DNA of 63,733 nucleotides, counting the filler. It is 9 parts of 9 records of this genome, joined end to end, with 100 filler letters (N's around TTAATTAATTAA, not from the genome) between each part and the next. Parts side by side here need not be neighbours in the genome. Positions count along the whole stretch, not along the records: positions 52,332 to 58,165 come from SRR7504441_6152; 8 more parts are not named here. One strand, written 5' to 3'. Shown here piece by piece: positions 3 through 58,265 of the stretch (position 1 is its first letter; every line of letters starts with the position of its first letter). The position numbers were made by a program, and so were the translations under genes. The notes under the pieces were generated by a model, which saw only the letters and a list, made by a program, of their open reading frames with translations, ran no database searches and was not told where the DNA came from.

Positions 3-2102
3 TCATCGTCTCACGCACCACCCAGCAACTCCAAAGGGCATCGGTTCTTCTCTCATGTCTACCAGGAGGCCCTCGAGAAGCTGCACGATCGCGTCAAGCT
101 GCTCCAGCAAGAAGGCTCAGAGGTGGTACTGCAGAAAATCCAGGAGGGTGTAGTTGATGCGGCAGGAGACGTGCTCGAGCAGGATGTTGGCAGCGGTCTT
201 GGGAATACAGCCAAAAGGCTCGCCTTGGGCAAAGGCAAAAAGGCTACCTATGCTGCAGAAAAGAAAGAGAAAGCAGGCAACACAACCGCAGCTCCTGCTG
301 CTGTTCAGGCAAAAGCAGACCCAACAGATGCAGATGTCGCCGACCCATGGTCCCTTGGCTGCAGAAATGTGTCTCAGGACTGGGTTCAAATGACTTGCCC
401 GTGTTTCGAGATGTTTCACTGGAAGCGGATGGTTGTAGACGAGTTCACCTACCTGGATCGGCAAGATAGCGAGATCGTGCGGCTGGTCCAGTCCACCTAC
501 CGCTGGTTCCTGAGTGGCACCCCGCCAACTGCCAACTTTGCTGATGTCAAGGGCATGGCCACTCTGATGGGCGTCCATCTTGGCGTCGACGAGGCGGCAG
601 TGTCCGACTCCAAGCAGTTCAAACAGCTGCAGCGCGAAATGACTGCATCAGAGAGGTTCCAGGCCCGGATGGAAGTGCGAACGGCTGCGTGGCACTCAAG
701 GAGGCACCGACTAGCACAGGGCTTCCTGGATCGATTCATGAGACAAAACATTGCAGAGATAGATGAGATCATCGCAGAGGATCATCTGCAACTGATTGAG
801 CTCACTGCGGCAGAGCAAGCTGTGTATCTGGAGCTGGACCACCACCTGCAAGCAATGGAGATGAAGGCCAAGAAAAGTGTCAAATCGAAGGCCTCTTCCG
901 GTGAAGGCGACCGAGAATCTCGATTGCGTGAAGCCCTGGGAGCAAGCGCGTCTCCTGAAGAGGCGCTGCTGAAGCGCTGCAGCCACTATGATCTGGAGTG
1001 CGCGTCTGTTTCAGCCGAAGCAGCATGCGATCAAATAATCAAGACCAGGCAAAGCCAGCTTGAAGCATGCGAGGAAGAGCTCTTCGAGAAGATTGACCAG
1101 GGAACTGTGATGAGGGACAATCTGGTGGCCCTGGATCCGAGCGAATTCGGCTCCGATCGGTTCTCTGACTGGCTCAGTGGCCTGAGTAAGCCGAGCAAGG
1201 AAGGATGTGGAGATATGGAGGCTCTCACAAAACTCCGGGACATTGTGCGCTTAGCTGTACCCGAGCAGAAACCGCCTTCCAAGGGTATCGGGTCTGGTAT
1301 CACTGATAGCAGCCAAAAACTAGCTGGTGCCAGGCTGAACCTTAGGGAGCATGTGCACTTGCTGAGGAGGCTGGAGAAGGAGCTTGTAGGTAGGGTGCGC
1401 TCGCTTCGGTACTTTCAAGCTGTCCGGGCAATCCAGGCCTGCTCGGAGGAGCCGGTCAAGGCAACATGTGTAGCTTGCGGGACTCAAATGAATTCTGATT
1501 CGGAATGGGCGGTCATGTCTTGCTGCGGACACCAAGGCCGCATGCAGTGCCTAGCCCCAGCGGCTGCGGCACAAGAGTGCCCAGCTGAAGGCTGTGGAGC
1601 TGCTGCTCGTGCCTCCTCAGTGATTGCAGCATCCTCCCTTGCAGGCCCAGAGAAAGCGGTTACCAGCAAGTTTGGGAGTAAGCTAGGCAGCATTGTGAGT
1701 TGCATCAAGCAAATACCTGAAAACGAGAGGATCTTAGTATTTGTGCAGTTTCCGGATCTGGCTCAAGCTGTCATCGCTGCACTCAGAGACAGCTCAGTAG
1801 TAGTTGCCGAAGTGAAGGGCAGCGTGGTGCAAAAGACAAAGGTGATGGACTCTATGCAAGCTGACGGTGGACCGCGTGTACTGCTGCTCAATCTGGCCGA
1901 CGAGTCCGCGTCTGGAGCCAACCTGACCCTTTGTAACCATGCAATATTTGTCCATGCTATGCTGGCTGAGAGTCAAGAACACTACACTGCGTGTGAAACT
2001 CAGGCCATAGGACGCATCCGACGCTACGGCCAGTCAAAAGTGGTGCACTTATGGCGGTTCATTGTGCAGAATACAATCGACCAGAAGATTTTCGACGAGT
2101 GA
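3..2102 (+). CDS. DNMT5: DNMT5-type DNA methyltransferase, C-terminal SNF2 ATPase/RING-like region (5'-truncated by the window edge)
   Basis: Frame is open from nt 3. SNF2 motifs VVDEFTY, LSGTPP and QAIGRIRRYGQ; Cys-rich RING-like insert; segments recalled as DNMT5-specific (LGVD, WH.RRH..AQ.FLD.F.RQNIAEIDEI, ESASGANLT..NHAIFVH). The methyltransferase domain is not in the window. Confidence 0.7.
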   Translation, partial: SSSHAPPSNSKGHRFFSHVYQEALEKLHDRVKLLQQEGSEVVLQKIQEGVVDAAGDVLEQDVGSGLGNTAKRLALGKGKKATYAAEKKEKAGNTTAAPAAVQAKADPTDADVADPWSLGCRNVSQDWVQMTCPCFEMFHWKRMVVDEFTYLDRQDSEIVRLVQSTYRWFLSGTPPTANFADVKGMATLMGVHLGVDEAAVSDSKQFKQLQREMTASERFQARMEVRTAAWHSRRHRLAQGFLDRFMRQNIAEIDEIIAEDHLQLIELTAAEQAVYLELDHHLQAMEMKAKKSVKSKASSGEGDRESRLREALGASASPEEALLKRCSHYDLECASVSAEAACDQIIKTRQSQLEACEEELFEKIDQGTVMRDNLVALDPSEFGSDRFSDWLSGLSKPSKEGCGDMEALTKLRDIVRLAVPEQKPPSKGIGSGITDSSQKLAGARLNLREHVHLLRRLEKELVGRVRSLRYFQAVRAIQACSEEPVKATCVACGTQMNSDSEWAVMSCCGHQGRMQCLAPAAAAQECPAEGCGAAARASSVIAASSLAGPEKAVTSKFGSKLGSIVSCIKQIPENERILVFVQFPDLAQAVIAALRDSSVVVAEVKGSVVQKTKVMDSMQADGGPRVLLLNLADESASGANLTLCNHAIFVHAMLAESQEHYTACETQAIGRIRRYGQSKVVHLWRFIVQNTIDQKIFDE

Positions 2103-5737: not shown

Positions 5738-7129
5738 TCACTTGGTTGTCGGGCACGCATCTGCGTGAGCATCCAGGGCTAGATCTGCCATCTGAACAGC
5801 ACCCTCCATCCAACACTGCCAGTCCGAGGCGTTGCTATTGGCATAGAACACCGGAGCACCGTCGCCACATGGTCGGAGCAGCTCTCCCCGCAGCTTTGGC
5901 ACATCCACCCCTGGCAGCCACCACGAGGCCGCATGATCCCACGCTCGAAACACTGCATGCTCCGGCGCAGGCACCCGGCCCCGCTCGCCATAGTGGCTAA
6001 TGGAGAGATCATCCAGCAACGCCTCTACCACCGCCTCGATCCCGCCCTCCTCCTCAAGCGCGGCCAGCGCCTGTGTCGGCGGCGCGTCGCCCGCAGTGTA
6101 CACCAGCAGCGTGTCCGAGTCCCAATAAAACACGAGCCTGGCCCGGGTGGTGGTAATGGACCTCCCTGTAGTTAACCCAAAGTCCCGCTCCCACCAGGGC
6201 TCAGCCCAGGTGAGGAAGCACTTGGTGCACTTGGCGTTGAGCACCGCAGCGTTAGCCCGCGCCGCCAATCCAGCCTTAAGTCCGCTGATCTCGTTCCAAT
6301 GGCACAGAGGTGCGGTGAGGAACACAGCGTCGGCAGTGAGAGCACTCCCGTCACCAAACCCGAGCGTGGCCGGCCCGGCAGGCCCGGAAGTCTCTACCGA
6401 GACTAGCTCCTTGCCGAACTGCACCGGAGTGTCCCCGGCCATCCGGCTCACCACAGACTGCCAGCCCTGCGCCAGCTGGTGGTGTGTCGGGCCAGCAGAG
6501 GCCAGGCACCGGTTGGCCTCGCGCCAGCACGCCGCCGAGATCGGCCCGACATCGTCGTACCCGAGCTGCGCGTGCCACGCCCGCTGGTCCAGGGAGGCAT
6601 CCCCAAACTCCTTCCAAACGCCGTTGACGTCCATCTGGTGCAGAGCCTGCTCGTACACATCCAGCGCCGCATCCCCGGGGTGCCGCGCGTCGTGCCGCGC
6701 CAGCAAGACATCGAACGCGTCGGCCGGCAGCTCCCCGGACGGAGTTCGCGCCTGCGTCTCGGCGTCGAAGAAGAAGGTCGCCGGGCCGGACAGCGGCCGT
6801 GGGTCCAAGACGAAGTCAAGCTCATCGCAGAGCGCCGCCATCCGCCTGTGGGCGTGGGGAAATATTCGCATGCCACCGAGCTCCTCCACGTACTGCGGAC
6901 TCGGGGCGCCGGCGTCGATCGCTGTGGAGGACATCAGCCGACCGCCCACCCGGTCGGCCCGCTCCACGATACCCAGCCGGAGCTCGGGCCGGGCCTGGGA
7001 GAGCCGGTGGGCTATGTACGCTCCTGAGAACCCACAGCCGACGATGGCCACGTCCAGGCTCGCCGCGGTGCTCATCATCCGCCCCAGTCCGGGGCCAGAG
7101 CGCAGCCCGGCGCTCCTCGCGAGACTCAT
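5738..7129 (-). CDS. Flavin-dependent amine/L-amino-acid oxidase (MAO family), intronless, possible mitochondrial presequence
   Basis: VAIVGCGFSG, E.ADRVGGRL, ELGGMRI and C-terminal WMEGAV motifs. Likely start MSLARSAGLRS at 7129. Confidence 0.85.
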   Translation of the reverse strand: MSLARSAGLRSGPGLGRMMSTAASLDVAIVGCGFSGAYIAHRLSQARPELRLGIVERADRVGGRLMSSTAIDAGAPSPQYVEELGGMRIFPHAHRRMAALCDELDFVLDPRPLSGPATFFFDAETQARTPSGELPADAFDVLLARHDARHPGDAALDVYEQALHQMDVNGVWKEFGDASLDQRAWHAQLGYDDVGPISAACWREANRCLASAGPTHHQLAQGWQSVVSRMAGDTPVQFGKELVSVETSGPAGPATLGFGDGSALTADAVFLTAPLCHWNEISGLKAGLAARANAAVLNAKCTKCFLTWAEPWWERDFGLTTGRSITTTRARLVFYWDSDTLLVYTAGDAPPTQALAALEEEGGIEAVVEALLDDLSISHYGERGRVPAPEHAVFRAWDHAASWWLPGVDVPKLRGELLRPCGDGAPVFYANSNASDWQCWMEGAVQMADLALDAHADACPTTK

Positions 7130-7225
7130 CGGAGTGGCCGAGTGGGGCCCTGCCGTGTAACGGAATCTGACCGGCCGCGAGGCCTTCACCCACGCCTGGT
7201 TGCCAGGGAAGGGGGGGGGCGCGAG

Positions 7226-7764
7226 ATGACGGCCCCGAGCGAGTACCTGAGCGGGCTGTGCCGGCGGTGCGGGCAGCGTGCTGGCCCGGGCGAGCCTGGT
7301 GGCAGCATCCCGGGGGTGATTGCGATCTTCGTCAACCACCACCAGGGCCCGGAGCTGTTGCGCGGTGCCCCGCCCCGGCGACCGCACACCGAGCGGCTGG
7401 CAGCGGTGGCCGAGGAGCGGGACTCCGAGCGGCTGTCCGAGCAGCGCACTGACCTGGCGGCCGCGGTGGGGATAGCAACAGACCAGGCAGGGCGCGCTGG
7501 TGGCCGGGGCGAGCCTGGGGGTCAGCTTTCCAAGATTGATATGAAGAACCGGTCGCTGGTGGCGTTTTGTAACGGGGTGAACGTGGTGCACCTGAATCAC
7601 CATCCGCTGGTGCTCACGTTTGTGGCGGAGGAGGTGGGGCCGGCCGTGTGCGCGGGCCGATCGGGTGGTAGGATGCGGCGATCGGCTTGATCTTGGAGAT
7701 GGCGGACGAAGTGCGGCAGGTGCTGGAGCCGATGAGGACCTTTGGCAACACCTGCTTCGAGTAA
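7226..7764 (+). CDS. LAMTOR3: Ragulator complex subunit LAMTOR3 (MP1); 5 exons
   Basis: Introns 7267-7305, 7365-7403, 7487-7525 (GC-AG) and 7634-7671. The spliced protein reads ATDQLSKIDMKNRSLVAF...VVHLNHHPLVLTFVA...IGLILEM, matching the family pattern. Confidence 0.8.
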
Positions 7765-8024
7765 CACGGCTTTCGTAAACCCAATCAGGGAGAGGAATGG
7801 ATTTAAATAAAAAACAGTGTCGCACGACCGGTCGTTTACGACGTGACGATGTTTGCCGTATGAGTACTATACGCACGCCGTACCAGGCACCGCCCAGGAT
7901 GCGAGCGGACCTACTAAAGCGAGAGTTAGACCAAGAATCTATCCAATGATGTATATAGTTTGATAAAGACGCCGCAACAAGCTCGACACCCTTACCCCTA
8001 TCTATGGATCGACGAGTGCCTAGA

Positions 8025-8885
8025 CTACACGACCAGCCGGTAGGTAATGTACCGGCCAGCCGTCTCACTAGCCCTTTCAATCTTGACCACCTGCAGACCC
8101 CACTCTCAGCCTTTGCAGGCACACGGACTCACGTCTCCTCGATTCAGCCCGTAGTACCGGGACACCGGATCCTTGTGCTGAATCCTGGGCAGCTGGGTCT
8201 CCTTCAGCTTATACTTACGCAGCAGCGCCCTGCGGCCCACCCTCAGCCCCGCTCTGGCAGCGCGGGCCACTTCTTCTCGTCTTTAGTCAGCTGCTGGTGC
8301 GTCGGGACAAGAACATGCTCTGTGATATTGACCAGCAGCTCCTTCTCCAGGAATTGCTCGACCTGCCCCCCGTCGCCCCGCCGACCCAGCCGGCCGCGCA
8401 CCCGGTACCCCTGGCTCGTGTTAGTGTTCTGGAGCGCCTGCTTGGCGAAGGGCGTGAGCTTCCCCCGGACTATAATCATCGCCTTGGTCACGCCCTGCGA
8501 CTTCATCTTCTCCAGGCACCTGCCCGGCCCAGTCGGACCGGCCCAGCCCGGGGCCCACTTCCGGATCGGCTTGACTCCGACGTTGTCCTCCTCCATAAAG
8601 AAGACAAACAGCTTGCTCGCGTGGTCCTCCCCGTGCCGGTGCAGCATCGCCAGCTGCTCCCGCCTGCCTGCGCTCGCCCGGGCGCCGGGCTCCGGGGCGT
8701 ACGACGGCGCGTTGCCGTATTGCTCCTTGAAGGCGCTCAGGGACTTGTTGAGTTCGTCCGAGGAGATGAGGTATCCTCGGTCGGCGAGCATCTTGGTGAC
8801 CGTCTTCCGCACCCGGAACAGCCGGCTCACCTGCCCCCCGGATCGGAGCACGCGCCGGGGCCCGGCCCACCTCGTCCTCGGCCAT
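8025..8885 (-). CDS. RPB5: RNA polymerase I/II/III shared subunit RPB5; 7 exons
   Basis: Introns 8831-8870, 8664-8702, 8520-8558, 8363-8401, 8230-8270 and 8091-8132. Motifs [37 protein letters not shown] and [11 protein letters not shown]. Confidence 0.95.
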
Positions 8886-10819: not shown

Positions 10820-10919
10820 NNNNNNNNNNNNNNNNNNNNNNNNNNNNNNNNNNNNNNNNNNNNTTAATTAATTAANNNNNNNNNNNNNNNNNNNNNNNNN
10901 NNNNNNNNNNNNNNNNNNN
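10820..10919. other. Artificial contig linker N44-TTAATTAATTAA-N44
   Basis: The same 100-nt spacer, with stops in all six frames, occurs eight times. Confidence 0.97.
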
Positions 10920-20980: not shown

Positions 20981-21080
20981 NNNNNNNNNNNNNNNNNNNN
21001 NNNNNNNNNNNNNNNNNNNNNNNNTTAATTAATTAANNNNNNNNNNNNNNNNNNNNNNNNNNNNNNNNNNNNNNNNNNNN
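20981..21080. other. Artificial contig linker
   Basis: N44-TTAATTAATTAA-N44. Confidence 0.97.
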
Positions 21081-29390: not shown

Positions 29391-29490
29391 NNNNNNNNNN
29401 NNNNNNNNNNNNNNNNNNNNNNNNNNNNNNNNNNTTAATTAATTAANNNNNNNNNNNNNNNNNNNNNNNNNNNNNNNNNNNNNNNNNNNN
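29391..29490. other. Artificial contig linker
   Basis: N44-TTAATTAATTAA-N44. Confidence 0.97.
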
Positions 29491-29590: not shown

Positions 29591-31678
29591 ATGTGGTCGC
29601 ACGATGGGCGTGAGCTGCCGGCTGAGCGTGTGCTGCACGATGGGCGTGACATGCCGGCGGCTCTGGTAAAGCGGGCCTCGTTCTACCTCGGGCCAGGCGC
29701 GTCGCAGCGCGTGGAGGCCCTGGCAGCCGACCCGGACGACCAGCCGGCCGGGTTCAGCCTGGAGAGCTGCCTGGACGCGACGGCCGCCCTGCAGTGCGTG
29801 GCCAAGTTCCCGTCCACGCCGCACCTGTTCGACGCGGCCAGCTGGCTCGGCGGGCCGGGGGCGCTCGGGCAGGGCGACACGCTGCTCAAGGAGCCGACGG
29901 CCCGGGCGCGATTCCTCGGGGGCGAGCTGGCCAGGGCCGAGGAGAAGCTGGACGGGGCCAATCTGGCTGTGTTCTTCGAGCCTGGTAACGGCAAGTGCCC
30001 CGGGCACGGGCTGCCCCGGCCGAGCTACAAGAACCGGGGCAAGAGCGTGTGTAGCACCAGCTCGGCGCAGTATGGTGGGTCGGCCGGCAAGGGGCTCGAC
30101 GCCTGGATGGACGTCCGGCACTGCACGCTGTGGCGGCTGCTCGGGTGGCGGTACATGCTGTTCGGCGAGTGGTGTTATCTGGTGCACTCGGTGCGCTACA
30201 CGGGGCTGCCCGATTACTTTGTCGCGTTTGATGTGTATGACCGTGTTGAGGGCAAGTACCTGAGCGCTGATAGGAGGGAGGCAATGCTCGCCGGCTCGGG
30301 GATCGCCACGGTGCCACATATAGCCACCGACCGCTGGTCGGAGCACTCAATTCGGGAGCTGATCTACGGCGAATCCGGGGCGGGCGCCCGCTGCTCGGCG
30401 TGCAACCTTGGAGTGCCAGTAGAGGGCGTGTATCTGCGGGTGGACCGGGATGGCTGGCTCGAGAGCAGAGCCAAAGTGGTCCGGCACGACTTCATCCAGG
30501 GTATAGAAGACAACGGCCGGTGGGAGAGGCAGAAGCCGGTATTCCAGCTGCGGGAGACCAGCGGATGGGGATGGTTCAATGGAACTCGTTGCTGCGGGAC
30601 ATCGGATGTGTTCCACGCGCCGCCCGAGTTGGAGCCAGGCTATTCGCCTGAGCTGGACGGGTCGCCCGCGGAGGCTGAAGGGGTCGAACTGGAGCAGCCC
30701 GAGCCGGCGGCGCCTGCAGCTGCAGAGGATACGGAAGTTCGAGTCTCGCGGAAGGGCAAGCGGGCTGGTCCAGGCTGGAAGCTGCTCATTCTGGTGGGCG
30801 TGCAGGGGTGCGCCGGAGCCAAGTCTGGCGGCCGAGCCCGGGGCAGGTGCGGGAAGAGCAGCTTCGCGGATGCACTGTGCCAGGCGCACGGGGGCTGGGT
30901 CCGGGTGTGTCAGGACGAGGACGACGGGAGCCGTTACCTTACTGAACGGCACCTGGGGACGGCTGCAAGGCAAGGGCACCCTATGGTGCTCGACCGGTGC
31001 AACTTTTCGGCGTCGGACCGGAAAGAGTGGATGAAAGTGGCGATGGTGACTCCGAGGGAGACGGCGGTTGTGTTCTTTGATTTCCCTCCGGAGCTCTGCA
31101 AATTGAGAGTAATGATGCGTCGAGCGCACCCCACCATACCGTTCGGTGCAGCCCAGTCCGGGTGGGTGTGATGCGCGAGGCAGGTAAGGGGGGCCGGATT
31201 GTGGACTCCACTCAAAAGAAGATGGAGCCGCCTGCTAGTCGAGAAGGGTTTGGTGACTTGTTCGTGGTCAAATCAACCGACGATGCGCATCGGTGCCTCG
31301 CTGTGCCGCCGAGTAGGGATCCCGGCGAGCAGGTTGCTCGCGGCGTGGGGCGCGTCCAAGCCTCGGTTCGGCCCGTGGTCGCAGGCTGCCGAGATTCTGG
31401 CCCAGTTCACAATCAGTCAGCTTGACAAGCCGAGCATTCGCATCCCTTTCCACGCAGCGTGCCGCTTTGGTTTGGAGGCTGTGGAGTGGGAAGGCTGTGT
31501 CGAGCCGGCCGTGTTTGCTGGGGCCTTGATCCAGTTTGTCTGCTCCAATCTAGTCGACACGATCTCGGAAGAGCAGGTCGCACAGTTTGTCGGGTGCACG
31601 GTCGCTGAGCTGAGCGCCTGCTCGGAGGAGCATGTGCTACCGATGGCCTACGAGATATCGCAGCACTTGTGGGGCTGA
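29591..31678 (+). CDS. ATP-dependent RNA ligase fused to a polynucleotide-kinase-type P-loop domain and a helical C-terminal domain
   Basis: Ligase motifs KFP.TPHL, EEKLDGAN, FGEW, AFDV, EGVY.R and AKVV. Removing intron 30808-30846 restores Walker A GVQGCGKS, followed by VCQD, LDRCN, HPTI and EGF. Two more short introns lead to the stop at 31678. Confidence 0.82.
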
Positions 31679-34818: not shown

Positions 34819-34918
34819 NNNNNNNNNNNNNNNNNNNNNNNNNNNNNNNNNNNNNNNNNNNNTTAATTAATTAANNNNNNNNNNNNNNNNNNNNNNNNNN
34901 NNNNNNNNNNNNNNNNNN
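34819..34918. other. Artificial contig linker
   Basis: N44-TTAATTAATTAA-N44. Confidence 0.97.
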
Positions 34919-38702: not shown

Positions 38703-38802
38703 NNNNNNNNNNNNNNNNNNNNNNNNNNNNNNNNNNNNNNNNNNNNTTAATTAATTAANNNNNNNNNNNNNNNNNNNNNNNNNNNNNNNNNNNNNNNNNN
38801 NN
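38703..38802. other. Artificial contig linker
   Basis: N44-TTAATTAATTAA-N44. Confidence 0.97.
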
Positions 38803-48174: not shown

Positions 48175-48274
48175 NNNNNNNNNNNNNNNNNNNNNNNNNN
48201 NNNNNNNNNNNNNNNNNNTTAATTAATTAANNNNNNNNNNNNNNNNNNNNNNNNNNNNNNNNNNNNNNNNNNNN
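48175..48274. other. Artificial contig linker
   Basis: N44-TTAATTAATTAA-N44. Confidence 0.97.
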
Positions 48275-50914: not shown

Positions 50915-52090
50915 TTACTCAGTGCACGGGTTGCAGGTCGGGACGTAATCGCAATACTTGACCACCGCACGCAGGCAATCTCCTCCGTGCAGCGCTTCGA
51001 TCGCCTGAACCGTCCCGGCCACCCCGTCGAACCGGTGGGTGATGAAGTGGTCCACCACCAGCTCCCCCTTGCTCATCTTGGTGCACAGCATCGGGATCGC
51101 GTCCCTGGTCTTCCAGCCGCCGAATGCAGTCCCGCACAGCCGCCGGCCCGTGATGAACTGAAACGGGCGAGTGGAAATCTCGTGCCCGGCCGCGGCCACC
51201 CCGATGATGCAGCTCTCGCCCCATCCGCGGTGGGCCGCCTCGAGCGCCGAGCGCATCACGTTGGTGTTGCCTGTGCAGTCAAACGTGTAGTCGTACCCGT
51301 GCCCGGTAGGCGAGGTGCGGACTAGAACTTTCTGGATGGGCTCATCGCCAAAGTCCTTGGGGTTGAGGCATTCGGTGCACCCGAGCTGCTTGGCCATATC
51401 GAACTTCTTGGGGTTGATGTCGATGCCTACAATGTGCGAGGCACCCACCGCCTTGGCTGCCTGCACCACAGCAAATCCGACGGCTCCAAGACCAAACACG
51501 GCCACGCTGCTAAACGGTTCGACCTTGGTGGTGTTCCACACCGCGCCCAGCCCGGTCGAGACGCCGCAGCCGAACAGGCAGGCCTTCTCGGGCACAGTCT
51601 CCGGGTCGATTTTGGCGACCGAGATTTCGGCCAGAACCGAGTACTCGGAGAAGGTGGAGCAGCCCATGAAGTGGTAGATGGTGCTGCCGTCGCTCTTCAG
51701 CGTGAACCGGGAGGTGCCGTCCGGCATCACGCCGGCGCCCTGTGAGGACCTGATCTTGGGGCAGAGGTTGGTCTTGGGCGAGATGCAAAAGATGCACTGC
51801 GGGCCCTTGCACTGCGGGGTGTACCCAGGGACTACCAGGTCGCCGACCGCGACGGAGGTGACCCCCTCGCCGACTGACTCCACCACGGCAGTGGCCTCGT
51901 GCCCCAGGATAGAAGGGAAGAGCCCCTCCGGGTCCTGGCCCGAGAGCGTGTAGATGTCGGTGTGGCAGAGCGCGTTGCACAGGACTTTGACACGGACCTC
52001 GCCGGCCTTGGGAGGGGCCACCAGGATAGTCTCCTCGCGCAGGTCGTCCACCCCGAAGGCGACCATGGCCTTGCACTCGATCGGCTCCAT
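50915..52090 (-). CDS. ADH5: Class III alcohol dehydrogenase (S-hydroxymethylglutathione dehydrogenase/GSNOR)
   Basis: CHTD.YTLSG.DPEG.FP.ILGHE, SPKTNLC, HFMGCSTFSEY, ALEAAHRGWGES and EISTRPFQ; intronless. Confidence 0.95.
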   Translation of the reverse strand: MEPIECKAMVAFGVDDLREETILVAPPKAGEVRVKVLCNALCHTDIYTLSGQDPEGLFPSILGHEATAVVESVGEGVTSVAVGDLVVPGYTPQCKGPQCIFCISPKTNLCPKIRSSQGAGVMPDGTSRFTLKSDGSTIYHFMGCSTFSEYSVLAEISVAKIDPETVPEKACLFGCGVSTGLGAVWNTTKVEPFSSVAVFGLGAVGFAVVQAAKAVGASHIVGIDINPKKFDMAKQLGCTECLNPKDFGDEPIQKVLVRTSPTGHGYDYTFDCTGNTNVMRSALEAAHRGWGESCIIGVAAAGHEISTRPFQFITGRRLCGTAFGGWKTRDAIPMLCTKMSKGELVVDHFITHRFDGVAGTVQAIEALHGGDCLRAVVKYCDYVPTCNPCTE

Positions 52091-52231
52091 CTTGGCTGTT
52101 TGTTTGGCCAAGGGTGCGTCCGAGAGATACACGCGCACGTCCCGTCGCCCTCCGAAAAAAAAATCTGGAACCCGCTGCGCGAAATATTTGGTTCGCCACT
52201 GTAGTAGGCTGTGCAGACTGCTTGGTGCATG

Positions 52232-52331
52232 NNNNNNNNNNNNNNNNNNNNNNNNNNNNNNNNNNNNNNNNNNNNTTAATTAATTAANNNNNNNNNNNNN
52301 NNNNNNNNNNNNNNNNNNNNNNNNNNNNNNN
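52232..52331. other. Artificial contig linker
   Basis: N44-TTAATTAATTAA-N44. Confidence 0.97.
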
Positions 52332-52745
52332 AAGCCGAAGCGGATCTCAAAGCCCAAAATCCGGCGGCAACCCAGCTCTAGTGATACTGTATGATTGCAC
52401 ACGACCTGTAGATCTAGTTCGGACGTCGGCTGATGAGAAGCTTATGCGGAGCTCAGTAGAAGTGTTACCCGCGTACTTAGAATGCTTAGTAGCATTCTCA
52501 GTAGCTACTCAGCTCCTTGTTGCTTGCCTCGCACACGATCTTCAATCTCATCTTCATAAAGACTTTAATAATAAAGACTTAATAAAGACTCAGTACAGAC
52601 TTAGTACAGACTTCGTATGCATAAAGGATTTAGCATGCATACCATCAAGATACCACCGGAGGAGATAAATGTACTTACGCGTATGTAGCTAGCTTATAAT
52701 CATGTAGTGCTAGGCCTAGTGCCATGCCTAATGCCCTGAATAAGC

Positions 52746-55714
52746 CTACCGGGCCGAGACAATCTCGTGGCCGTCAATCATGTCTAAATCAGAATTGCGA
52801 GCAAACTTGTAATCTGCAACGAGCTCCACCCCGGCGGGGACTTTGCTCAGCGCCGCCACTTCGACCACTGGGTATGGCAATGTTTTCTTGCTTGGTTTCA
52901 GTTTAAACTCCACATTCGGCCTAGTAGATACGCCATGAAATGAATTGATGAACCTAGTTTCGTTGCCATGTAGCTGAGCATCTATTATGAGCCCCTTGGA
53001 CCGATCGTAATCCAACTCGTAGCGTGAATTTCCTTGCCTTGAGGTTGTATCAGCGACACGCCGAACCAGACCTGTGTATTGGCCTATGATGTCGTCTTTC
53101 TTCCAGCCTTGTGCTGCAAAAAGCCCAAACTCCACTTGGCTATTCTGACCAAATGCTGGATGGCCTTGCTTCACAGGCCTGATCTCAACTCCTTTCATCA
53201 GCACCGGCCGATTCACCAGTTTCTGAATAGCCTCAGCACCGCTCCACATCAGCATCGGTGTGAACAGCACTTCCTCGGGCCAAAACTTTGGCGAAACAAT
53301 CTGTTCGTCATAGTCCTCTTCGTTGATCTCCTCATCCTCAGCTGAAGAAGGCGGTTTCCACCCCTCAAGCAATTGTGTTTCTCGTGCCTGACGCCTGCTA
53401 GGTTCTCGCGGCAGCGTCGTTGGGGTCTGTACCCCTCTCTGCTCGGACCTACAGGCATTTCGCTGGGCACGCGCATTGGTCGCCTCTTGACGTGCCCTCT
53501 CCCGTTCGGCCTGCTGGCGCTCGGCATGAAGGCGCGAGGCTTGCTGACGCCAGAACTGGGCATCCTTTGAGCAGCGCCTAGCTGAAGGTGGAGCTTTTCG
53601 AGGTCGAGGCTTGGCGCGTTTGGGTGGCGGTGGCATGTCTTCGTCGGATTGGTCGCAATTTCCGAAGATGGCAGAGGAGTATGCAACGCTATCGCACGCT
53701 AACTGGCAAGTTGTGCCGGGTTTTAGCTCGCAAAACCACTCGGATTGCTCGTTCTGGTACCTTGAAAACATTGCTTGATCGACAATTCTCCACTTTTCGC
53801 ACCTATCACACTGTAGCCAGTTGTCATCAACTTCCTCTCCAACCGCCAGCATGTTGTCAAGACGCTGGAGTGCAGCGCCTTGCTCACGAATCCTCTGCAA
53901 GTCTTGACTGTGCTGGCGGCCCGCTATAGTCGATCTCTGCACTCCGAGCTCTGCCAGCACGTTCTGTGATTCATTGGTTGTAGCGTAACTCTCCATTTTT
54001 GTTGGCAGTTGCTTCCGAAGGCTGGCCATTGTCACTGTCTCTTTGTAACTCTGCTTGTTATGTGTCGGTTTGCCATTGGTAGTCTCGATCACCCCCACCA
54101 CCCCTTGCAAGCACTCATGATCCTCTAACATGGTTCCGAGTCGGTGGTATGGCATTATTAGTCTCGGGATGCCATCCCCCTTGCGGTTGTAAAAGAGCAG
54201 CCCGCGAACGTCTGATAGCTCAGTCGTTTCTTGCTGCACGGTTACACAGTCCACGTGGCAAATCCTCTTCAGTGATACCTTAGATTCCCGCCTTTCTATT
54301 TCCTTGACGTTTGCCTCAGTGTAATACACATCGGCTCTGGTTCCTTGGCTGCTCTCGTGCACATTCTCGACTCGTGCATGGTAGTACTTCTTGTGGGGCC
54401 GCCACCACACATCCACTGCATACAGCAGGCTCACAGCCCTATCATCGCAGCAACGCACCGCTCAGCCCTTTCCGCAACTCTTCTGGTGTTACCTGCCGCC
54501 TCTCTTCTGGTTTCACTGTGACCTGCCTACCCTCAACCCGACCCGCTGCCCACCAATACCAGGTTCACCCCAAAAGACACCTGGGCAGTCGGGACTGGAG
54601 CGTCGCAGCGATCACATCTCTTAACTCCGTTGCATACACGGATGCTAGTACCACCACACACCCCATCACGTTCGACGTCCTCCTCGCATCTGAATGTCAA
54701 GGACGGCTTAAAGCTCACAACTTTCTTGAGTAACGTCAGCGCATTCACCGGCTCTACGGGCACCCCGCTGATTCGAATCTGAGTTGTTGGATTCAAGTAC
54801 AATATCTTACAATAAGCTCGGAGGGACCGCTTCCATTGAGACGAGAGAGGCGCATGCACTGCATTATCGGTCGGGACCTCAACTTCGGTCAGCCTCAGGT
54901 CGCCAGGCTCATCAAGCTCCCACGCATCGTGCAATGCACTCACCAGCACCATGGTGCCAGACCTAGCTGTGCCTAATTTGTCATCCACCAGTCCGAGCAG
55001 GGCCGCCTCAGTCTTCAGGCCAGAGTACCGCAGCACGTACCCGAGATCCCGATCCCACCGTTGCTGCCCATGGTGAATCACTGGCTGATAACCATTGGCG
55101 CCACGGGTCCAGGCCGTCTCCGGAAGGTAAATCTCGTTCGCATCTGCACCGCACTCAGGGTTGCACGCAGCAGGCACGCACTCCACTCTCCCAAGAATGT
55201 CTGCGACAGCAGCATGCAGCGCAGATGAGGTGCCTGTTTCGTTATCACCAGCGCGTCTTTGCCCACCCGCATCGAGCTGCTCTTGAAGCCGTTCCCGTGC
55301 TCTCCAATCTTATCCAGCCCTTTCTCGCACTGGCCGAAGCTGCACATCTTGTGCAGTTGCTCCCTATCCATCCCGGCACCGTCGTCCGTGAACAGCAGCG
55401 CGCCACCCGGCTGGCCGTCGAGCCGGACGTGCTCGATCCACACCGAGCCGGCCGCCGCATCCTGCGCGTTGTCGATCAGCTCCGCCACCGCCCCCAGCAC
55501 CTGCCCCCGGGTGAGCCCCGGCTGTGTACATGCCCGGGACCCATGTGTGCGAGGTCGAGTTGCTGTGCAGGAACTTTGGGTGGATCCCGGCGGTGCGCAG
55601 GTTGCTCAGGCCGTCCCGGGTACCTTGCCAGTCGCTGCTGGAGGCCGCGTCGGACGCTGCAGGGTTGCACCCAGCAGGCAACCGCCAGGGCATCTTGGCT
55701 GTAGCCATTGGCAT
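52746..55714 (-). CDS. MORC: MORC-family GHKL ATPase with a Tudor-like insert, CW zinc finger and C-terminal SET domain; 5 exons
   Basis: Introns 55501-55540, 55144-55181, 54523-54559 and 54416-54458 give one frame. MORC motifs HPKFLHSNSTSH.W, AELIDNA.D, DDG.GM, IG.HGNGFKS.SMRVG, SLRAYC.ILY and PTHNKQ; CW finger WLQCDRCEKWR...WFC; SET motifs GLFA, IDA...GNETRFIN and ELVADY. Confidence 0.85.
54523..54559 (-). repeat. 37-nt intron, copy A of a duplicated intron
   Basis: GTATTGGTGGGCAGCGGGTCGGGTTGAGGGTAGGCAG; 36/37 identical to 56797-56833. Confidence 0.9.
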
Positions 55715-55790
55715 CTTCTCATCAGAGGGGCGGATCTTTCCGTTGTTCCGTTGTGGTTGTGTAACCGACGCGGCCAGCCCGTGGCTCGCA

Positions 55791-58102
55791 ATGTCCCAAT
55801 TGCGCAACACGCGGCTTCATCTGGCCCAAGAGCTCCGGCAGCACCGCCCGTCGCAGCCGCCCACCCCTCGGGGCTTGACCAGGAGGGAGCGCGACCTCGC
55901 CCAGCGGAGGGAGCTGCTTGACTCGGCCTGGGCGGCCCCTCGAGAGCCTGAGAGGCACCGACTGTACGACTCCACCCCTCAGCCCGCCCCAAGAGGATTC
56001 GAGACCCCGCGACAGTACGATCCCGCCCCCAGAGGCTTCGAGACCCCGCGGCAGTACGACCCAGTCCCTCAGCCCGCTAGTGCCGATTTGCTCAGCACAG
56101 TGGAGCGCGAGAGAGGCGACGCCTTTGAGGCTGAATGCGCGTCGCTCCGGCGGGCGCAGCATAAAACCGTGCAGGAGTCCACGGGGCTGGTCAAGCAGCT
56201 GCAGGCGCCGGGCGGCCGGGCTGTCGGCGCCGAGTGCGGGGGCAGGCCCAGCTCGAGGCCCAGAGTCAAGTGGCTTCGCTGCTCGAGGACAGGGCCGAGA
56301 ACGCCGAGACTCGGCTGGCAGAGGCCCAACGGTCGGGCGCGGGGTTGGCCGAGACAGCGCAGGAGCTGCGCATGACGATCGACCAGCTGCACAGCCGAGA
56401 GACGGGTTGGCGCTCCCAGATGGAGGCCGCTGAGATGCGAGCTGCGAGGCTGGAGCATGCGCTGGGCGCAACCAAGGCCGAGCTGGCGGAGGCGGTAACC
56501 GACCTGGTTGCCTGGCGGTCAGTTGGGGGCAGTTGAAGCTAGGCGAGCTGGCCCGGGAGCACGAGTCCAAGGCGCGGGAGGCGGCCTCGGAGGAGCGGAC
56601 GAGCCGCGATATGGAGATGAGTAGGACAGAAGCTCTCCAGCGCCAGCTGGCCAAGGCAACGGCCCCATGGTCAGGCCTGACCTGTGCACAGATGCAGCGC
56701 GAGATGTCCGAGCTGAACCGGGACCGCGCCGGCTCGGATCAGCTCCACGCGCTGATTAGTCAGTTGGAGGTTGGGCTTTCTGACGAGAGGCACAAGGTAT
56801 TGGTGGGCGGCGGGTCGGGTTGAGGGTAGGCAGGTTGAAGCGGCCTTGTCTCGAGGGTCGCAGCTCGAGCTGCAGCTGGACAACGAGCGCTCGCACGCCA
56901 AGCGCGAGTCTGAACGGGCTGACTGCAGCTCGCAGGAGCTAGAGCACACGAAGCAGCTGCACATGAGCACTGTGGCCAAGCTCAGAAGCGAGATGGGCGA
57001 GATGCAGGCTACCATCGCCCGGAAGGACACGCAGGGCAGCCACGAGACTGGGCTGCTTAAGGACGAGATCGTACAGATGACACGGGCTCTTCACGCGCTC
57101 GAGAGCACCAATGAGGATCTACAGGCCAAGCTCGGGTACGCGCTGGCTGATGGTGAGGCGAGCCAGACAGAGGTGGCCAAGTTGTCTCAGCACCTGGCCG
57201 AGGCGGTGGACGAGCTGAACGAAGCCCGGTACAAGCTGCAGGGCGGCAAGCTGGATCAGGTGCCTCACACTGGGCACGGGCTGCTCGATCTCGTTGGAGA
57301 GAGGCTGGTCCAGAGGCAGCTGACGGGGGAGGAGCACGATGAGCTCGCCCGGTGCCACAAGCGGTGCAGCGAACTCGACAGCGAGCTCGCGAGGCTCCGA
57401 CCGGAGCTGGCTCAGATGCGGCTCCGTTCTGACCGGGCGGATCGCGAGAAGAGCGATGTTGCTCAGCTGCGATATGAGCTGGAAGCGGCGCAGCAGGCTT
57501 TGGAGCGAAGCTTGCAAGAGAGGGATCGGTTGCTCCGCGAGTTGGATCGAATGGCCGAGCAGAGCAGACGGCCGGTGGCACAGGACAAGAGCCCACTGGC
57601 GAGGCTGCTAGCGTTGCGGATGCTGCTGCAAGGCTGGAGATGGCGTGGGAAGCGCCGGCTATATGAGAGGTTTGCTCTCTGGAAAGAGATCTGGGCGTTG
57701 GGCAGGGAAGATGCTACGAGGGTAGCCTGCGCAACCAGGCTGATGAGGAGCTATGCAATGGTGTTGCTCGGGCCACAAGCTTTGGCGTTTGCACAGATGA
57801 GAGTCAACTACATGCTCGAGTCGAGCCTCAGGTCCGTCAAAAGCAAGAAGGTGCAAAGCAAGAAGGTGCAAGTCGACATCCACAACACCCCCCGCTCCAC
57901 TCCCCGAGGCAGGCAGGCAGCACCAGCTTCGTCATTCAGCCATGCAAACGTCGATTCTGCCATCGCAGATCACCATGCCAGGCAAAGGGCATATTCGAGC
58001 ACGACTCGAACGAGCAAAACTGTCACGGTGCCTGATGGCTTTTCGTCATTCCGACAGCGCTCGTCGTCAGCCGAGAGGCGCCACTTTTCATGGGACCAAT
58101 AG
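55791..58102 (+). CDS. Long coiled-coil protein with an N-terminal 13-aa duplication (PAPRGFETPRQYD x2); multi-exon
   Basis: Heptad-rich exons joined by introns including 56205-56245 (GC-AG) and 56797-56833. Confidence 0.65.
56797..56833 (+). repeat. 37-nt intron, copy B of a duplicated intron
   Basis: GTATTGGTGGGCGGCGGGTCGGGTTGAGGGTAGGCAG; contains an in-frame TGA, so it must be spliced. Confidence 0.9.
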
Positions 58103-58165
58103 GCCTGCAATTGGTGTGCCGCATGCAATCATTATTTACAATAAAGCCTAGATTTACAATAAAGC

Positions 58166-58265
58166 NNNNNNNNNNNNNNNNNNNNNNNNNNNNNNNNNNN
58201 NNNNNNNNNTTAATTAATTAANNNNNNNNNNNNNNNNNNNNNNNNNNNNNNNNNNNNNNNNNNNN
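58166..58265. other. Artificial contig linker
   Basis: N44-TTAATTAATTAA-N44. Confidence 0.97.

Follow-up and report, generated by a model that had tools for sequence, protein, structure and literature searches.

MORC ATPases and SET methyltransferases repeatedly work together, as in the HUSH–MORC2–SETDB1 system of mammals and the MORC6–SUVH2/9 system of plants. In humans, the clamp (a MORC), the reader of methyl-lysine and the writer (a SET protein) act on one target as separate proteins, as seen with MORC2, HUSH and SETDB1. In Arabidopsis, a MORC ATPase is likewise linked to a SET protein functionally but non-covalently; the abstracts of two reports describe SUVH2 and SUVH9 as acting with MORC6 (PMC3898904, PMC4865133). 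Here, we describe a gene encoding a MORC ATPase and a SET domain in a single polypeptide, which is found at 55714–52746 on the minus strand of a 63,733-nucleotide (nt) stretch of DNA (hereafter, the window) from a GC-rich, uncultured marine eukaryote. This MORC-SET gene is one real gene, in which a MORC3-like GHKL and S5 ATPase module is followed by a CW finger, a linker and a SET domain. In our reading, to which we give a rough probability of 0.55, its product of 936 amino acids (aa) would couple the reading of chromatin marks, the clamping of DNA and the writing of methylation, with a repressive outcome.

In terms of domain order, the MORC-SET protein is collinear with MORC3 from GHKL through S5 to the CW finger that adjoins it, and the Trp and Cys residues of the CW finger are kept; in contrast to MORC3 and MORC4, an insert of ~115 residues in S5 and a C-terminal SET domain are added, and the C-terminal region of the animal proteins is absent. 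The initial annotation of the locus, made from the letters alone, had compared it with animal MORC2/MORC3 acting with separate methyl-lysine readers and SETDB1, and this is a fair analogy. Here, clamp, probable readers and SET domain are combined in one polypeptide. The SET domain is, however, not SETDB1-like and lacks the pre-SET and post-SET zinc clusters; it also differs in subfamily from that of the SUVH proteins, which possess SRA, pre-SET and post-SET domains. Chromo-SET and BAH-SET proteins (e.g., P0071 of Tisochrysis lutea) share the SET subfamily and its pre-SET extension and likewise have a reader fused to a writer, but are without a MORC ATPase. The same domain order, together with the same pre-SET and variant SET motifs, is found in proteins of the green algae Cymbomonas and Mesostigma and in a cluster from marine metagenomes (P0045), which are described below.

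A MORC ATPase, a CW finger and a SET domain in one gene

The MORC-SET gene is composed of five exons and four GT..AG introns of 37–43 nt (Table 1), and no internal stop is present in the spliced product. A stop-to-stop scan gave three overlapping minus-strand open frames at the gene, and the frame of 571 codons (52746–54461) contains the Tudor-like stretch, the end of S5, the CW finger, the linker and the SET domain. The earlier claim that these parts share a single exon is thus confirmed, and the fusion of CW to SET does not depend on splicing. All four splice junctions fit either homologues or an intron-less variant.

Pfam finds HATPase_c_3, Morc6_S5, zf-CW and SET in this one polypeptide, as had been proposed from the sequence. 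HATPase_c_3 was matched in the frame 55078–55605 with E 2.9e-16 (60.2 bits vs a cut-off of 25), and the motifs that define MORC ATPases are in place: namely, the N-box (E65/N69), D98-G-A-G101 and G127-N-G-F-K131. These motifs were also aligned when exon 2 was compared by phmmer with the structures in PDB, where MORC3 (5.2e-20), MORC2 (1.1e-19) and MORC4 (1.4e-19) were matched. The S5 domain is split by the insert but is collinear with those of MORC2 and MORC3; positions 2–56 of the Morc6_S5 profile fall in the frame 54533–55309 (E 0.017, 15.6 bits, which alone is below the cut-off of 26.2), and positions 66–138 in the 571-codon frame (E 1.2e-9, 38.8 bits). The CW finger (E 1e-8, 35.5 bits vs a cut-off of 27.5) has W580, W589 and W607 as well as the Cys residues aligned with the CW finger of MORC3, and its AlphaFold2 model has a predicted local distance difference test score (pLDDT) of 85–95. 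It is followed by a long charged helix, with which charged stretches in the relatives P0027, P0045, P0079 and P0001 align. In AlphaFold2 modeling of the 571-codon frame, residues 1–85 gave no confident model.

The SET domain was detected with E 1.5e-8 in the frame scan and, when scanned alone, with E 2.1e-9 (38.2 bits vs a cut-off of 22.4). Structure prediction, which the initial annotation had proposed as a check, gave a confident SET fold (pLDDT mostly 85–98), and Foldseek matched it to the SET domain of ASH1L with S-adenosylmethionine (1.6e-10) and, more broadly, to ASH1L, NSD, G9a and SETD2 at 1e-10 to 1e-9. The Asn of the RFIN motif (N871) is kept, and E911-L-V-A-D-Y916 is aligned with ELTYDY of ASH1L and MLL1. 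The RFINSFHG motif that had been read in the sequence is indeed present, and post-SET cysteines are absent as noted there. Since the relatives carry Asp, His or Ser at the position of the His in the usual Asn–His (NH) pair, and a 24-row alignment of the subfamily shows little or no variation at N117, E147 and Y152 (numbered along the SET stretch), the variant motif is, as far as these alignments tell, a family trait and not local decay.

Sequence words of the contig recur in four metagenome runs, marine or aquatic, which stem from four studies, consist of contigs and are presumed to be of DNA. One of these, X1, is possibly the sample of origin, but as its contigs are not identical to the window, they represent a variant. 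Record 3 of X1 (834 nt, 16 differences) covers 53081–53914 without gaps (from the start of SET through the entire linker to the CW finger, inclusive), and record 10 of X2 covers 53522–54123, from CW to S5. The join between CW and SET is hence not a chimera, because a variant metagenome contig bridges the two, and the interval 53300–53700, for which support by reads had been sought, is spanned in the same way. No cover by the metagenome contigs was found at 55257–55451 and 55842–56036. Of the 75 variant differences, 40 were listed; 28 of those listed are in coding sequence, 21 being synonymous and seven non-synonymous, and five of the seven are confined to aa 711–737 in the linker. On the evidence of its codons, the gene is under purifying selection.

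A reader-like insert in the S5 domain

Exon 3 is aligned to residues 142–278 of MORC2, and the alignment is picked up again in the 571-codon frame at residue 357. Where MORC2 has ~80 residues (the gap at 279–356), the MORC-SET protein has ~115, comprising a Cys cluster and a barrel-like stretch, so that the insertion sites of the two proteins coincide. The ~80 residues of MORC2 presumably are its DNA-binding coiled coil 1, in contrast to the Cys cluster and barrel found here. The placement of the Cys cluster proposed in the initial annotation therefore holds insofar as the cluster precedes SFGVNL and fills the gap, while the identity of that gap as coiled coil 1 is our assumption. As for the function of the arm, a passage of PMC11879086 states that coiled coil 1 of MORC2 binds DNA and sits on the periphery.

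The Cys cluster reads C317-x9-C327-x7-C335-x5-C341-x2-C344 and is encoded just before SFGVNL (54605–54688). It matched no family and is not shared by P0012, the closest relative; a small zinc knuckle of very recent gain is one possibility. Both of the variant differences listed in it are synonymous. As a separate possibility, we considered that the cluster is an unspliced intron, given that it lies in an in-frame stretch of 96 nt bounded by GT..AG; this was rejected, albeit weakly, as the stretch is kept in record 5 of X1 with both listed differences synonymous.

Of 288 sequences searched, only P0012 and P0167 share the barrel-like stretch (~60 residues), and the three variant differences listed in it are all synonymous. 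P0012, a metagenome protein, shows 55% identity across residues 15–93 of the frame. In its AlphaFold2 model, the barrel matched the Tudor domains of TDRD3 (Z 8.8; 60 residues aligned with a root-mean-square deviation of 2.8) and SMN (Z 8.3; 56/56 residues, 1.9), followed by SHH1 SAWADEE, TIP60 and MRG15; the best five matches span Z 8.8–8.1, and Tudor and chromo-barrel structures extend down to Z 7. Barrels of the Tudor, chromo-barrel, PWWP or a related type make up the majority of the 50 structural-match rows. An Atlas search with the barrel gave Tudor_3, Agenet, Tudor-knot and Spin at 0.81–0.84 after a first match to a KIF2A-like domain at 0.89, all being below 0.9 and thus leads only; with the 555-aa frame, the same search returned nothing usable. 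On such weak to moderate evidence, the inserted barrel is probably Tudor-like.

MORC-CW-SET proteins as a small family

A HMMER scan of the 571-aa frame against 1.84 billion representatives gave 384 matches at E <= 1e-3, of which 30 were at <= 1e-10 and none at <= 1e-30. We picked 28 relatives from the 150 listed among the 384 matches and scanned them with Pfam, and HATPase_c_3, Morc6_S5, zf-CW and SET were all found, in the same order, in three of the 28: P0027 (Cymbomonas tetramitiformis KAK3262191.1, 1507 aa), P0079 (Mesostigma viride Mv12362, 1426 aa, with two further isoforms, P0165 and P0166) and P0045 (a 17-member cluster from metagenomes, 1272 aa). The best match among those listed, P0001, is an N-truncated protein with S5-CW-CW-MBD-SET, having an MBD and a second CW in addition. 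GHKL and this SET domain occurred together in nine of the 287 collected proteins, all of which come from the clusters of P0027, P0079 and P0045.

The MORC-SET protein is 21–24% identical to P0027, P0079, P0045 and P0001 over the big frame, and it follows the domain order of the family: namely, GHKL, S5, CW, charged helix, pre-SET P..WP and a SET domain with the variant NH pair. The motifs P..WP, GVEIR..HP, RFxN(D/H/S)(Y/F)xG..PN and E(L/F)x.DY and the charged helix are common to the window protein, P0027, P0045 and P0079. Proteins of the latter type are 1272–1507 aa long and have a PHD-like finger, and neither the Tudor-like insert nor the Cys cluster is found in P0027, P0045, P0079 or P0001. 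The SET subfamily as a whole is broad, with members in fungi, pelagophytes, haptophytes, a diatom, Picozoa and Mesostigma, and these are often fused to Chromo, BAH or CW and PHD readers, which fits a use of the domain in coupling a reader to a writer.

When the 571-aa frame was searched by word index against proteins of similar length, nothing was returned, the index being too coarse for such divergence, and a profile search limited to proteins of 2639–5000 aa also returned nothing. The sole locus matched among metagenome contigs, L001, was rejected as a 26-residue chance match without a MORC or SET frame.

Full-text searches of the literature turned up no account of a protein joining MORC to SET, a point on which the figures and supplements of PMC2292703 and PMC6048995 could also bear. 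In the portions of PMC2292703 available, the partner domains of MORC are given as Bromo, BAM, PHDX/ZfCW and TAM/MBD, with SET not among them, and the corresponding portions of a survey of green-plant MORC proteins (PMC6048995) make no mention of such a fusion. The architecture, which the initial annotation presented as unfamiliar, already exists in P0027, P0079 and P0045, and the objection foreseen there, that it is already widespread, applies in part. In other words, MORC-CW-SET is, by these matches, a small existing family that is unnamed and apparently undescribed, and not a one-off. To this architecture, the window protein adds a lineage-specific, reader-like insert within the ATPase module.

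Proposed mechanism and alternative explanations

By analogy with the MORC, CW and SET families, from which the coupling and its repressive outcome are inferred, the MORC-SET protein could work as follows, along the lines of the self-contained read-write-clamp silencing enzyme that the initial annotation proposed. ATP binding would dimerise the GHKL heads, and DNA would be clamped or compacted as by other MORCs. The CW finger would probably dock on methylated H3K4, because the Trp residues aligned with MORC3 are kept; a passage of PMC11879086 reports that the CW fingers of MORC3/4 bind H3K4me3, whereas the MORC2 finger shows no binding to histone tails. The inserted barrel, probably a Tudor-type reader, would add a second contact, either with a methyl mark or with nucleic acid, beside the ATPase, and the tethered SET domain would methylate a lysine of nearby nucleosomes. 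With reading, clamping and writing coupled in cis, the most likely outcome would be a self-reinforcing repression of repeats or foreign DNA.

Several observations weigh against this reading or parts of it. The whole frame as one transcript is a prediction from DNA, and the repressive role is drawn by analogy alone; indeed, the nearest solved SET domains include writers of H3K4 and H3K36. In the SET domain, Ser872 stands where the NH pair would have its His, the alignments to ASH1L and MLL1 show four inserted residues right after it, and a Cys-rich post-SET is missing; the activity of SET is therefore putative. The Tudor assignment is weak because the best Pfam match of the barrel, a MUM1-like PWWP, stays below threshold (17 bits vs a cut-off of 27.7, E 0.0096) and no Tudor/Royal profile was matched above threshold; the MUM1-like PWWP was not matched by Pfam in P0012 or P0167. 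The window's own barrel stretch has a pLDDT of <50, the four-stranded barrel of P0012 has 58–68 in a model with a whole mean of 42, and Z values of 7–8 are common for models without clear matches. The Tudor-like domain of the initial annotation thus stands as a barrel-like stretch inside S5 and is at the same time its weakest part.

Further such observations concern the family. The PHD-like Cys/His finger that precedes SET in P0001, P0027, P0045 and P0079 is absent from the window protein. The proposed SET phylogeny was run both with FastTree (234 rows) and with IQ-TREE in quick mode (72 rows, near-identical members of the P0045 cluster being left out); neither tree placed the window protein, which was left in a polytomy. 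A clade of the five MORC-SET rows alone is disfavoured in the approximately unbiased test (p-AU 0.033), as opposed to p-AU 0.49 (log-likelihood difference, 0.89) for a clade that also includes the Mesostigma CW-PHD-SET protein P0148 and the fragment P0011, a group named after seeing the tree. Furthermore, the ATPase part is nearer to SET-less MORC-CW proteins (P0106, 2e-42; P0093 of Tetraselmis, 7e-37) than to P0027 and P0045 (~1e-20), so that the fusion may have arisen more than once. A single origin of the fusion would nonetheless be compatible with the sequence data.

The replaced His and the missing post-SET also bear on the alternative that the SET domain is a non-catalytic module for binding or scaffolding, with the protein serving as a MORC clamp that has several readers and brings in other writers. 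The loss of the first Gly in the usual N-terminal Gly pair points in the same direction, and plant SUVH2/9, which act with MORC6, provide a precedent in which SET is non-catalytic. We consider this alternative unlikely, however, given that RFIN retains its Asn and ELxxDY its Glu and Tyr, that N117, E147 and Y152 hardly vary in the subfamily, and that both the model and Foldseek identify the fold confidently as SET; also, the conservation of the variant motif throughout the family suggests a functional pocket.

Another alternative accepts an active reader-writer but places it in euchromatin or DNA repair, with CW reading H3K4 methylation and SET writing that of H3K4 or H3K36. The nearest solved SET sequences would be consistent with this, being those of ASH1L (H3K36) and MLL1 (H3K4), with DYKF identical to MLL1, and the CW finger resembles the H3K4me3-binding one of MORC3. 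A profile search against solved SET domains, nonetheless, does not discriminate among substrates (MLL1, 7e-18; G9a, 9e-18; EZH2, ~1e-16). Published abstracts portray MORC proteins as silencers or compactors, and the Chromo and BAH partners of sister SET domains point to a heterochromatin-type logic; a function outside silencing is, in our judgment, improbable.

Finally, a mis-assembled contig or a read-through of neighboring MORC-CW and SET genes is a very remote prospect, because the short length of the contig (5.8 kb, from a pseudomolecule of joined contigs), the low-complexity, fast-evolving linker at 53300–53700 and the lack of an RNA run among those listed as matching the contig are set against 571 open codons, the gap-free variant contig across 53081–53914 and the same domain order in three full-length clusters and a truncated one.

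Gene structure, mini-introns and genomic context

The features of the MORC-SET gene are listed in Table 1. The spliced sequence SHTW|VLGAVAEL across intron 1 has a spacing equal to that in P0165/P0079 of Mesostigma in the alignment. The protein P0012 reads without gaps through both junctions flanking exon 4, where its collinear stretch is ...FGFNLVSVKPEVRIAVQKSELREGLSVDVLW. In record 5 of X1, position 54522 is joined to 54564 via four other letters that give the same residues (VNL|VT), with intron 3 missing, and intron 4 is kept with two variant differences inside it.

Table 1. Positions of features along the window
Feature	Position (nt)	Strand	Remarks
Exon 1 (aa 1–58)	55541..55714	-	First in-frame ATG; MORC N-terminal motif; ends ...SHTW; in-frame stop upstream
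Intron 1 (40 nt, GT..AG)	55501..55540	-	Required to join two frames; junction fits alignment with Mesostigma homologues
Exon 2 (aa 59–165)	55182..55500	-	Core of GHKL Bergerat fold
Intron 2 (38 nt, GT..AG)	55144..55181	-	Six residues left between stretches aligned to MORC2 ..135 and 142..
Exon 3 (aa 165–359)	54560..55143	-	Remaining GHKL, first half of S5, Cys cluster
Intron 3 (37 nt, GT..AG)	54523..54559	-	Present/absent among variants
Exon 4 (64 nt, aa 360–381)	54459..54522	-	Linker and first strand of Tudor-like barrel
Intron 4 (43 nt, GT..AG)	54416..54458	-	Junction borne out by P0012
Tudor-like beta-barrel, exon 5 part (aa ~381–433)	54258..54415	-	W385, Y391, Y392 and Y412 common to P0012
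Second half of S5 (aa ~444–524)	53985..54227	-	Morc6_S5; MORC3 1.1e-6, MORC2 5.8e-5
CW-type zinc finger (aa 579–627)	53676..53822	-	W580, C583, C586, W589, W607, C609, C617/C621
Long predicted helix (aa 664–706)	53439..53567	-	Basic, Glu/Arg-rich linker; DSSP helix, frame residues 299–341, pLDDT 87–94
Pre-SET extension (P..WP, GVEIR..HP) and SET (aa 754–936)	52749..53297	-	N871, S872, H874, E911, Y916; stop codon 52746–52748
Second copy of 37-nt intron	56797..56833	+	In divergent coiled-coil neighbor gene; removal joins ...DERHK to VEAALSRG... across two frames
Eight 100-nt linkers (N44-TTAATTAATTAA-N44)	10820–10919, 20981–21080, 29391–29490, 34819–34918, 38703–38802, 48175–48274, 52232–52331, 58166–58265		Between contigs

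Intron 3 and its second copy in the neighboring gene are identical at 36 of 37 positions, each being in the sense orientation to its host gene. We also noticed that intron 3 is exactly absent from the variant contig which keeps intron 4, 64 nt away. This resembles either a tiny mobile 'introner' or an intron that was gained or lost recently, with the polymorphism persisting at sea. The introns seen are all 37–43 nt long, and only ~75 nt (55714–55790) separate the start codon of the MORC-SET gene from that of the divergent coiled-coil gene (plus strand, ~55790–58102, in several frames); the genome is very compact. The 5' coding part of the latter gene contains three tandem copies of 39 nt (55932–56060), which are 62–100% alike and encode a repeated peptide of the type PRGFETPRQYD.

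The window is built of nine contigs (3.8–10.8 kb each) strung together via 100-nt linkers of the form N-TTAATTAATTAA-N, and the gene neighborhood across the linkers is therefore meaningless; the true context of the MORC-SET gene is only 52332–58165 (5834 nt, 58.5% G+C). Among the runs listed as sharing words with this contig, no RNA run was found. Pfam, applied to 30 of the 104 long frames in the window, gave only ordinary eukaryotic enzymes, and Rfam at gathering scores gave no matches over the whole window. On the other contigs, a 796-codon frame (5741–8128, minus strand) has a flavin amine oxidase at its C-terminus and a long N-terminal extension, and an SNF2-related frame (3–2099, plus strand) and a frame with RNA ligase and AAA_33 (29591–31168, plus strand) were also seen. 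A frame resembling zinc-type (class III-like) alcohol dehydrogenase by eye (50915–52231, minus strand) stops at the contig edge before the linker and is not a true neighbor of the MORC-SET gene.

Implications

The finding is tempered by the core fusion being already present, unannotated, in public algal proteomes. More speculatively, and with more doubt than belief on our part, MORC-CW-SET proteins may be old and overlooked one-polypeptide heterochromatin machines of green algae and related plankton, i.e., an ATP-driven clamp carrying its own histone methyltransferase and doing in cis what HUSH–MORC2–SETDB1 or MORC–SUVH do as complexes; in the window protein, a Tudor barrel that reads a methyl mark might have taken the place of the DNA-binding arm, so that recognition of the mark would gate the closure of the clamp, with a mobile mini-intron of 37 nt still being polymorphic at sea.

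The MORC-SET fusion bears on how clamping is coupled to marking: a covalent fusion serves as 'Rosetta stone' evidence for both activities acting on the same substrate. The presence of a reader-like barrel at the site of the DNA-binding arm of MORC2 suggests, furthermore, that the MORC ATPase module is regulated quite generally through this site, as through a port. As a compact system, the MORC-SET protein would allow reader input, the ATPase cycle and methyl transfer to be dissected in one recombinant protein.

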